From the NCBI RefSeq assembly GCF_053078305.1, contig NZ_CP166879.1: a stretch of 64,000 nucleotides of DNA; one strand, written 5' to 3'. Both the position numbers and the translations under genes were made by a program. Numbering within the stretch: the stretch's first letter is position 1; each line of letters opens with the position of its first letter. The notes below the pieces were generated by a model, which saw nothing but the letters and a program-made list of their open reading frames with translations, made no database searches and had not been told where the DNA came from. Positions 18,659 through 19,717 of this stretch are shown here, one piece after another.

Positions 18659-19717
18659 ATGCTTAATACTGTAAAAATATCCAGTTGTGAGTTAATCAAC
18701 GCCGACTGCCTGGCATTTATCCGGTCGTTACCCGAAAATTCTGTTGACCTGATAGTCACGGACCCGCCGTACTTTAAAGTGAAGCCTGAGGGCTGGGATA
18801 ACCAGTGGAAGGGCGACGATGATTACCTGAAGTGGCTGGACCAGTGTCTTGCGCAGTTCTGGCGGGTGCTGAAACCTGCCGGAAGTCTTTACCTGTTCTG
18901 TGGCCATCGCCTGGCATCTGATATCGAAATCATGATGCGTGAACGCTTCAGTGTGCTGAACCATATTATCTGGGCAAAGCCGTCCGGACGCTGGAACGGG
19001 TGCAACAAGGAAAGCCTGAGGGCGTATTTCCCCGCCACAGAGCGCATTCTGTTCGCGGAACATTATCAGGGGCCGTATCGTCCGAAAGATGCCGGGTATG
19101 AGGCGAAGGGCAGGGCACTGAAACAGCATGTGATGGCCCCGCTGATTGCTTACTTTCGTGATGCGCGTGCTGCCCTGGGGATAACGGCAAAACAGATTGT
19201 GGATGCCACAGGAAAGAAAAACATGGTGTCGCACTGGTTCAGTGCCAGTCAGTGGCAGCTACCGAACGAAAGCGATTATCTGAAATTACAGGCGCTGTTT
19301 GCCCGGGTGGCAGAAGAGAAGCATCAGCGCGGTGAACTGGAAAAGCCCCACCACCAGCTGCTGGAGACGTATACTTCACTGAACCGGCAGTATGCGGAAC
19401 TGCAGAGTGAATATAAGCATCTGCGGCGGTATTTTGGCGTGACGGCGCAGGTGCCGTACACCGATGTGTGGACGCATAAACCGGTGCAGTACTATCCCGG
19501 GAAACATCCGTGCGAAAAACCGGCAGAAATGCTGCAGCAGATAATCAGCGCGAGCAGTCGTCCGGGGGACCTGGTTGCAGATTTTTTCATGGGGTCGGGT
19601 TCGACAGTCAAAGCCGCGATGGCGCTGGGGCGTCGTGCAACTGGCGTTGAGCTGGAGACTGAACGTTTTGAGCAGACGGTCAGGGAAGTACAGGATTTAG
19701 CCAGTCAGAACGGATGA
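18659..19717 (+). CDS. DNA methyltransferase (N6-adenine/N4-cytosine type)
   Basis: LIVTDPPY motif IV N-terminal and FFMGSGST motif I C-terminal. Confidence 0.8.
   Translation: MLNTVKISSCELINADCLAFIRSLPENSVDLIVTDPPYFKVKPEGWDNQWKGDDDYLKWLDQCLAQFWRVLKPAGSLYLFCGHRLASDIEIMMRERFSVLNHIIWAKPSGRWNGCNKESLRAYFPATERILFAEHYQGPYRPKDAGYEAKGRALKQHVMAPLIAYFRDARAALGITAKQIVDATGKKNMVSHWFSASQWQLPNESDYLKLQALFARVAEEKHQRGELEKPHHQLLETYTSLNRQYAELQSEYKHLRRYFGVTAQVPYTDVWTHKPVQYYPGKHPCEKPAEMLQQIISASSRPGDLVADFFMGSGSTVKAAMALGRRATGVELETERFEQTVREVQDLASQNG

Follow-up and report, generated by a model that had tools for sequence, protein, structure and literature searches.

Why would a single prophage carry two DNA methyltransferase genes, neither of them accompanied by a restriction endonuclease? 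The question is raised by a 64,000-nucleotide stretch of contig NZ_CP166879.1 (NCBI RefSeq assembly GCF_053078305.1), hereafter called the window, in which a preliminary description made from the letters alone had reported two such open reading frames (ORFs), at 18659-19717 and 26580-27515, here named MT1 and MT2. Both sets of coordinates proved exact and both genes lie on the + strand, their products scoring far above the gathering score (26.7 bits) of the Pfam family PF01555 (N6_N4_Mtase), at 151.1 bits for MT1 and 114 bits for MT2. As also described, the two genes belong to one prophage: a distance of 6.9 kb separates them within the late region of one lambdoid prophage, the integrase gene of which occupies 1447-2721. 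We regard it as likely that MT1 and MT2 are partnerless phage methyltransferases of a Q-dependent late operon, made only in lytic growth, which methylate replicating phage DNA before packaging against restriction in the next host.

MT1 and the M.EcoGII family

MT1 is already known, as another copy of a well-characterised, commercial enzyme family, a membership that the preliminary description had missed. It is identical to M.EcoGII at 328 of 348 positions (~94%, against the sequence in Table S1 of PMC11551740, machine-read from the PDF with a few reading errors), and the alignment is gap-free through residues 135-262, which hold the four-helix recognition domain and the long charged linker. 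The two enzymes share the beta-class order (DPPY, recognition domain, FxGxG), nearly the same length (352 vs 349 aa) and the same prophage setting; they differ in their C-terminal tail, which ends in DLASQNG in MT1 and in DLIV in M.EcoGII. M.EcoGII itself is a prophage-borne, 349-aa beta-class enzyme from E. coli O104:H4 C227-11, and M.EcoGI is identical to it at 333 of 349 positions (Murray et al., 2018; PMC5778455), a divergence (95% identity) much like that of MT1.

The family is widespread. Murray et al. mention "a very similar MTase" in phage 1720a-02 (PMC5778455), to whose homologue MT1 is 98% identical at the DNA level; DNA identity is 97-98% to the "DNA methylase" of many Shiga toxin 2 (Stx2) phages, 85% to the methylase gene of phiP27 and 99.2% to the best match in another prophage. 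MT1-like genes occur in 1991 of 5426 complete E. coli genomes, with at most seven copies per genome, and the protein cluster that contains exact MT1 has 5932 members.

What such enzymes do comes from the literature on near-identical proteins, which documents their non-specific activity, their silence in lysogens and their toxicity. M.EcoGII methylates adenine whatever the context, and the purified enzyme stops cleavage by all of the adenine-sensitive restriction enzymes assayed (12/12 with 6-bp and 6/6 with 4-bp sites), which its authors relate to a proposed role in protecting phage DNA from restriction (PMC5778455). M.EcoGI and M.EcoGII are unexpressed in lysogens, and their constitutive expression is deleterious to the cell (PMC5778455). 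Homologues of both were classed as non-specific in a study of Shiga toxin-producing E. coli (STEC), where the methylomes of lysogens bearing them held no extra methylation motif (PMC6602927). The long charged linker of M.EcoGII was proposed to aid non-specific binding (SUPREM paper, PMC11551740). Farther afield, the homologues ARM81ld_p56 (Aeromonas) and PhiOS31_p25 (Serratia), at 58-67% identity, were shown by experiment to have relaxed specificity and to methylate adenine in most contexts; the phiP27 enzyme was grouped with them and predicted to behave alike, and the PhiOS31 methylase gene lies just 5' of the lysis cassette (PMC7556043). Their family is that of the phiP27 methylase, a relative of MT1; their hosts are more distant, and identity within the family is roughly 58-67%. 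By analogy with all of these proteins, MT1 most likely methylates adenine in any sequence context.

The same analogy bears on how such genes can be examined. The preliminary description had proposed that methylation motifs be called from long-read kinetics and that a lack of additional motifs would count against both genes. This check and this refutation would mislead: they would wrongly refute MT1, because a silent, non-specific enzyme gives no motif even though it is functional. Motif calling on lysogen methylomes is no measure of whether such methyltransferase genes work.

MT2 and the endolysin-Rz junction

MT2 is an uncharacterised member of the PF01555 beta-class family. The preliminary description had attributed DPPY and FxGSGST motifs to both proteins and had called them otherwise dissimilar. 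DPPY is indeed present in both (residue 35 of MT1, residue 28 of MT2) and MT1 has FMGSGST at residue 310, but MT2 has FTMGSGST at residue 266, which is FxxGSGST. The dissimilarity was overstated. Over their whole length, MT1 and MT2 share 26% identity (E 9e-25), and a profile comparison aligned 296 columns at 99.8% probability, central recognition domain included; from this full-length identity and this alignment, MT1 and MT2 are judged to be distant paralogues, not unrelated enzymes. In both, motif IV is N-terminal, the recognition domain central and the S-adenosylmethionine (SAM) motif I C-terminal. Neither matches PF02086 (Dam/D12, alpha class), and their motif order is reversed relative to that class. 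VT2-Sa Dam, P1 Dmt and T4 Dam resemble MT1 and MT2 as partnerless phage enzymes thought to protect phage DNA, but have the opposite motif order and belong to PF02086.

Relative to MT2, MT1 carries two insertions, at about residues 137-159 and 215-245; MT2 keeps the helical recognition domain without either of these linker insertions. Its identity to M.EcoGII is 25%, too low for membership of that family. A parallel is provided by M.PflMI, a site-specific enzyme of an M.EcoGII-related cluster which has the same overall predicted structure and a four-helix recognition domain without the highly charged linker (PMC11551740). MT2 stands to MT1 as M.PflMI to M.EcoGII, a likeness that is architectural only, by description, and silent on the target of MT2. 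Comparing the charge of linker and recognition domain between MT1 and MT2 was uninformative, with a net charge of +1 to +3 in every segment.

In the AlphaFold model of MT2 (mean pLDDT 79), a beta-class core is accompanied by a helical domain, predicted with confidence, at residues 137-210. Searched against the PDB with Foldseek, the model matched M.BceJIV (8URK), M.RsrI (1EG2), CcrM (6PBD) and M1.HpyAVI (5HEK) with E ~1e-15 and TM ~0.5, over the core alone; sequence matches to solved beta-class N6-adenine enzymes reach E values of about 1e-26 to 1e-14. What is shared with these four enzymes is the catalytic Rossmann core and the motif order, at an identity of 20-22%. Target specificity does not transfer from them because they have no counterpart to the helical recognition domains of MT1 and MT2, and in the fold search with the MT2 model the recognition domain matched no solved methyltransferase of the PDB, so that the target of MT2 cannot be read from structure. 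Within the MT2 family, divergence is highest in the recognition domain (51% mean pairwise identity vs 65-75% for the core). Since MT2 lacks the linker insertions and its family diverges most in the recognition domain, we infer that it methylates adenine at N6 and has a target of its own, probably sequence-specific, that varies among alleles.

The gene is rare. It occurs in eight of the 5426 complete E. coli genomes, seven times at >=99.5% identity and once as an allele at 79%, and its best DNA match in another prophage is 99.9% identical. The protein cluster containing exact MT2 has 152 members. A near-identity search of 50,697 phage records with the MT2 DNA gave no match; the closest protein of an isolated phage, at 54% identity, is from vB_EcoM-ep3, where the gene adjoins a primase gene, outside the lysis cassette. 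Relatives at 55-67% identity are common in Salmonella. A close relative that carries both methyltransferase genes also encodes Stx2b. Intact relatives with both genes include a prophage of E. coli strain FHI_NMBU_10 (L001) and one of JNEC-KY202 (L003). The searchable literature on lysis-cassette methyltransferases, on Stx-phage late-operon methyltransferases and on the RefSeq protein accessions yielded nothing on MT2.

The gene forms a clean insert of 929 bp between the ORF of a 43-aa peptide and Rz, with boundaries at about 26576 and 27504: homology with an MT2-bearing prophage is unbroken, whereas homology with an MT2-less prophage ends at 26575 and restarts at 27505. A synthetic empty junction (GGCTGGTGGGGTGAGGGGGATATGAACCG), in which the 43-aa ORF (26441-26575) is joined to Rz, is covered to at least 80% at one place in 1172 genomes, and most of the records listed have it unbroken, strain SHP24 among them. 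The 43-aa peptide ORF is kept in prophages both with and without MT2. The insert is bounded by GGTGGGGTGA and GGTGGTGATATGAACCG, that is, by a short similar sequence at both ends, and the MT2 stop codon overlaps the start ATG of Rz (ATGA), to which MT2 is probably translationally coupled. MT2 was acquired as a single-gene cassette exactly between the small membrane-peptide ORF and Rz.

The same position recurs. Members of the MT2 family lie between endolysin and Rz in every enterobacterial context sampled, namely four E. coli prophages (the window included), lambdoid and P22-like prophages of Salmonella and one P2-like prophage, and the Salmonella prophages concerned differ in their holin, lysozyme and terminase types. 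The small ORFs found 5' of the Salmonella homologues were considered as equivalents of the 43-aa peptide of the window and rejected on comparison; by eye, they resemble the window ORF at 26211-26426. Moreover, in a second prophage of E. coli strain FHI_NMBU_10 (NZ_CP046539.1), the slot is held by a methyltransferase of the D12/Dam class (locus L002, 11980-12817), which matches PF02086 and has FxGxG N-terminal to DPPY. Its flanks are the same small ORF and Rz as in the window, a gene-for-gene replacement, and this occupant is found in 4 of the 5426 genomes. More distant relatives of MT2 (53-54% identity) lie in early regions, beside other methyltransferase genes or a primase gene. Metagenome contigs L013 and L014 (positions 713-3936) hold three methyltransferase genes in a row, one of the Dam family, one of PF01555 (434 aa) and one like MT2 (54% identity), followed by a gene for a sigma-70 region-4 protein, which is a methyltransferase island in an uncultured phage-like contig.

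A wider interpretation can be put forward tentatively, as a possibility that we hold to be somewhat doubtful: in lambdoid, P22-like and P2-like temperate phages of enterobacteria, the site between endolysin and Rz may serve as a dedicated, exchangeable slot, in which single-gene methyltransferase cassettes, be they MT2-family alleles with their divergent recognition domains or a Dam-class enzyme, replace one another and are translationally coupled to the spanin gene. MT2 would then have been added to MT1 to ensure full modification of one restriction target, in a layered, modular anti-restriction strategy acting just before lysis. No description of a recurrent methyltransferase slot between endolysin and Rz was found in the searchable literature.

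Probable late expression and protection from restriction, and the alternatives

The preliminary description had seen no obvious restriction partner, and Pfam, PHROGs and PADLOC scans of the flanking ORFs likewise found no restriction endonuclease near MT1 or MT2. The neighbours of MT1 are a small ORF and tRNA genes, and those of MT2 are the endolysin gene, small peptide ORFs and Rz/Rz1. Of nuclease-like ORFs, a phage-type HNH gene (13298-13753) in the nin region comes closest, ~5 kb 5' of MT1 and 13 kb from MT2. Both genes are orphans by location, without the adjacent endonuclease of a Type II restriction-modification (R-M) system. Like this lack of a restriction gene, the integrity, family membership and positions of both genes, the boundaries of the MT2 insert and the recurrence of its slot are observations of the present analysis.

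Judged by their position, MT1 and MT2 would share one late transcription unit. Consensus scans found no sigma-70 consensus promoter on the + strand near either gene, and an Rfam scan of the interval between the Q-like gene and MT1 found no known RNA. Silence of MT1 in the lysogen would fit this lack of a consensus promoter and the place of MT1 after the Q-like gene and two terminator-like hairpins. Upon induction, the Q-like protein would enable RNA polymerase to read through the hairpins 3' of its gene; MT1 would be produced early in the late transcript and MT2 together with the lysis genes; replicating phage DNA would be methylated ahead of packaging; and the progeny DNA would resist restriction in the next host. 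As the first large gene past the Q antiterminator and the two hairpins, MT1 would be kept silent in the lysogen, where blanket adenine methylation would be harmful. Protection of phage DNA from restriction, one of the roles that the preliminary description had offered, emerges as the best supported, given the ~94% identity of MT1 to the restriction-blocking M.EcoGII (PMC5778455). We infer the dependence on Q in this prophage, the base and target of MT2 and the anti-restriction benefit itself.

Several points weigh against this reading. Consensus scanning of 17900-20200 found no sigma-70-type promoter, leaving pR' unplaced, and since pR' was not located, Q-dependence is argued from gene order and from the analogy with lambda and Stx phages. 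Some 20 positions separate MT1 from M.EcoGII, as counted on an error-containing reference text. No characterised close homologue of MT2 was found, and its target base is read solely from DPPY and the family. A second adenine methyltransferase looks redundant if MT1 already covers most adenines; hypothetically, both may be kept if coverage by MT1 is incomplete and MT2 completely protects one site. Finally, the prophage of this strain is probably defective: an 11.6-kb element interrupts its portal gene, a Mu-like prophage has entered it farther downstream, and the enzymes may therefore give this copy no current benefit.

This last point leads to the alternative that survives best, although we consider it unlikely: that the prophage is dead, and that one gene or both are decaying cargo which now has no function. 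With its portal gene split and a Mu-like prophage in its morphogenesis region, this copy probably cannot make virions. Both ORFs are nevertheless full length with intact catalytic and SAM motifs, the near-identical copies of MT1 and MT2 in other prophages speak against decay, and the late operon around both genes is intact. A benefit lost to this copy would, besides, leave the function of the genes unchanged.

Slightly less probable still is that MT2 is an N4-cytosine rather than an N6-adenine methyltransferase, complementing an adenine-only protection by MT1. Such an activity would account for a second methyltransferase beside a non-specific adenine enzyme; PF01555 spans both kinds of enzyme, and the solved N4-cytosine enzymes M.PvuII and rotifer N4CMT are among the sequence and fold matches of MT2. 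In motif IV, D/N-PP-Y/F marks N6-adenine enzymes and S-PP-Y/F marks N4-cytosine enzymes. All 30 aligned members of the MT2 family have D28, P30 and Y31 of the DPPY motif, and at least 90% of them have P29, which argues for adenine. So do the best sequence and fold matches, the adenine enzymes CcrM, M1.HpyAVI, M.BceJIV and M.RsrI, the cytosine enzymes scoring far lower, and so does the closest paralogue, MT1, as an adenine enzyme.

The other role raised in the preliminary description, epigenetic regulation of host or prophage genes in the lysogen, appears quite improbable. Gene regulation by orphan methyltransferases does have examples, such as Dam; M.EcoGIII, an R-M enzyme of Stx phages, changes the expression of many genes (PMC6602927); and spontaneous induction in a subpopulation could give transient methylation. 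Against these precedents stand the silence of M.EcoGI and M.EcoGII in lysogens and the harm done by their constitutive expression (PMC5778455), the homologue-bearing lysogen methylomes without an extra motif (PMC6602927), and the location of both genes, which follow terminator-like hairpins in a late operon and lack a consensus promoter on their strand. A non-specific enzyme would, in addition, be a poor carrier of site-specific regulatory information.

Least probable of all, and by our estimate very improbable, is that MT2 is the modification half of an R-M or other defence system with its nuclease elsewhere, protecting the host chromosome and not phage progeny. In its favour are matches of MT2 to PADLOC "Type II methyltransferase" models (best 131 bits, with no partner nuclease) and the HNH gene with its weak PtuB-like matches. 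However, these models capture a generic catalytic core, the HNH gene is 13 kb off in the nin region, the flanks of MT2 (endolysin, two small membrane-peptide ORFs, Rz/Rz1, terminase) include no nuclease, and the gene is a single-gene insertion, as it is in unrelated prophage backbones, with no co-travelling nuclease.

Prophage setting and neighbouring elements

The host prophage is a lambda-like prophage of E. coli. The 5' end of the window is a host alcohol dehydrogenase gene, followed by the phage integrase gene and, in order, by lambdoid early genes for an exonuclease, Rha/Ash, a CI-like repressor and replication proteins; a RelE toxin pair, DUF968 and RusA genes and the Q-like antiterminator gene come next. 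Downstream of the latter lie the terminator-like hairpins and a 65-aa ORF, MT1 and three tRNA genes, then TerB, a SASA/nanS-p-type esterase, the holin, a DUF1327 protein and the endolysin, and finally two small membrane-peptide ORFs, MT2, Rz/Rz1 and the terminase (Table 1). The prophage has no stx gene, and its layout is nonetheless that of a Stx-phage late region. The late operon around MT1 and MT2 is intact, and two other mobile elements interrupt the prophage further downstream.

Table 1. Features of the late region that carries MT1 and MT2, with positions in the window.
Feature	Position	Strand	Basis
Q-like late antiterminator (DUF1133 / Phage_antitermQ)	17522..18094	+	Pfam PF06576 E 4e-104, PF06530 E 1e-7; PHROG 753 "anti-termination protein Q-like" E 1.8e-74
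Terminator-like hairpin CCACCGGAAGGTGG with T-run, candidate tR' 3' of Q	18167..18190	+	Read from sequence; putative function
Small conserved ORF, 65 aa, 5' of MT1	18311..18508	+	PHROG 331 E 1e-37, function unassigned
Second terminator-like hairpin with T-run, just 5' of MT1	18495..18522	+	Terminator scan: 7-pair stem GCCTTCAGTCCTGAAGGC, then TTTTTTATTT
MT1, beta-class N6-adenine DNA methyltransferase, M.EcoGII orthologue (predicted non-specific)	18659..19717	+	352 aa; PF01555 E 5.8e-44
Three phage tRNA genes (CAT anticodon Met/Ile2, Arg-TCG, Arg-TCT), directly 3' of MT1	19758..20009	+	ARAGORN; Rfam RF00005 x3
Holin S (P21 type)	24311..24526	+	PF04971 E 9e-33
Endolysin R (lysozyme)	25554..26087	+	PF00959 E 4.6e-25
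Terminator-like hairpin 3' of endolysin gene	26178..26210	+	Terminator scan: 15-pair stem
43-aa hydrophobic (likely membrane) peptide ORF, left flank of MT2 slot	26441..26572	+	PHROG 4906 E 2e-24
MT2, beta-class DNA methyltransferase, N6-adenine predicted from DPPY, in lysis cassette	26580..27515	+	311 aa; PF01555 E 1.3e-32
Rz (i-spanin)	27512..27979	+	PF03245 E 5.9e-48
Rz1 (o-spanin lipoprotein), embedded in Rz	27732..27917	+	PF06085 E 5e-20
Small terminase (Nu1 type), first packaging gene downstream, same late operon	28682..29191	+	PF07471 E 1e-18

For the hairpin at 18167-18190, the terminator scan reported this stem on the - strand only. Relatives of the 65-aa ORF are annotated as a TrmB-family regulator or as a hypothetical protein. 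The order of Q-like gene, hairpins, MT1 and three tRNA genes puts MT1 where Stx phages usually have it, and related E. coli prophages are annotated in the same order. ARAGORN calls the first tRNA (19758-19833) a Met tRNA with anticodon CAT, whereas RefSeq annotates its counterpart in related prophages as tRNA-Ile; it is presumably of the ileX/ileZ type, decoding Ile after lysidine modification. The site 3' of the three tRNA genes, occupied by stxAB in Stx phages, here holds a TerB-family gene (20107-20610) and a small DUF3927-type ORF. The interval 20107-21408 also contains the small RNA STnc100 (20837-21049, 141 bits) and a 111-aa iraM-like ORF (21073-21408, - strand), which looks intact and is annotated as frameshifted iraM in relatives. 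Between holin and endolysin, the DUF1327 match of a 328-aa ORF (24531-25517) is confined to its first 74 residues; the whole protein corresponds to PHROG 1085 (function unassigned), and much shorter or truncated versions occur in relatives. In the nin region, a sok antitoxin RNA of a hok/sok-type module (14216-14391, 110 bits) adjoins the pair formed by a RelE-family toxin and a helix-turn-helix antitoxin (14644-15325, - strand).

The lambda-type portal gene is split into 31278-32150 and 43876-44709, which cover profile positions 2-241 and 235-354 and lie 11.6 kb apart. The element between them (32228-43855) is bounded by a perfect 21-bp direct repeat (GTGTATTGCAATGTGTATTGC) and encodes its own integrase (32299-33540), a Bro-N protein, an Ash-domain protein, an AAA_25/RepA-like helicase and a major capsid protein; annotations of its relatives include small terminase and head-tail connector genes. 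The element resembles a capsid-forming phage satellite (cf-PICI-like) that has integrated in the portal gene of a helper-type phage, and at most 68% of it is found in one place in any complete E. coli genome. Further downstream, a Mu-like prophage occupies the lambdoid head/tail region from about 49200 (left end approximate) to the end of the window at 64000, with genes for a Mu-repressor-like protein (49246-49764, - strand), the MuA transposase (50184-52292), MuB (52364-53296), Gam, gp11, GemA and a lysozyme. Rfam also identified two copies of the isrK and C4 antisense RNA pair, one (6689-6877, - strand) inside an Ash/Rha antirepressor-type gene of the lambdoid early region and the other (35806-35991, + strand) inside the Ash-domain gene of the satellite-like element, which suggests that in both elements C4 controls an antirepressor in the style of P1/P7. 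On the - strand, a DicF RNA occupies 7125-7176.

Taken as a whole, the finding is real but largely ordinary. More than one in three complete E. coli genomes have a gene of the MT1 type, which adds nothing new. MT2 offers a modest lead: in unrelated phage backbones it keeps strictly to the site between endolysin and Rz, which, together with its replacement there by a Dam-class gene, suggests a recurrent hot spot at which anti-restriction methyltransferases are swapped. Such a hot spot, if true, would aid in predicting the host range and the restriction evasion of relatives of Shiga-toxin phages.

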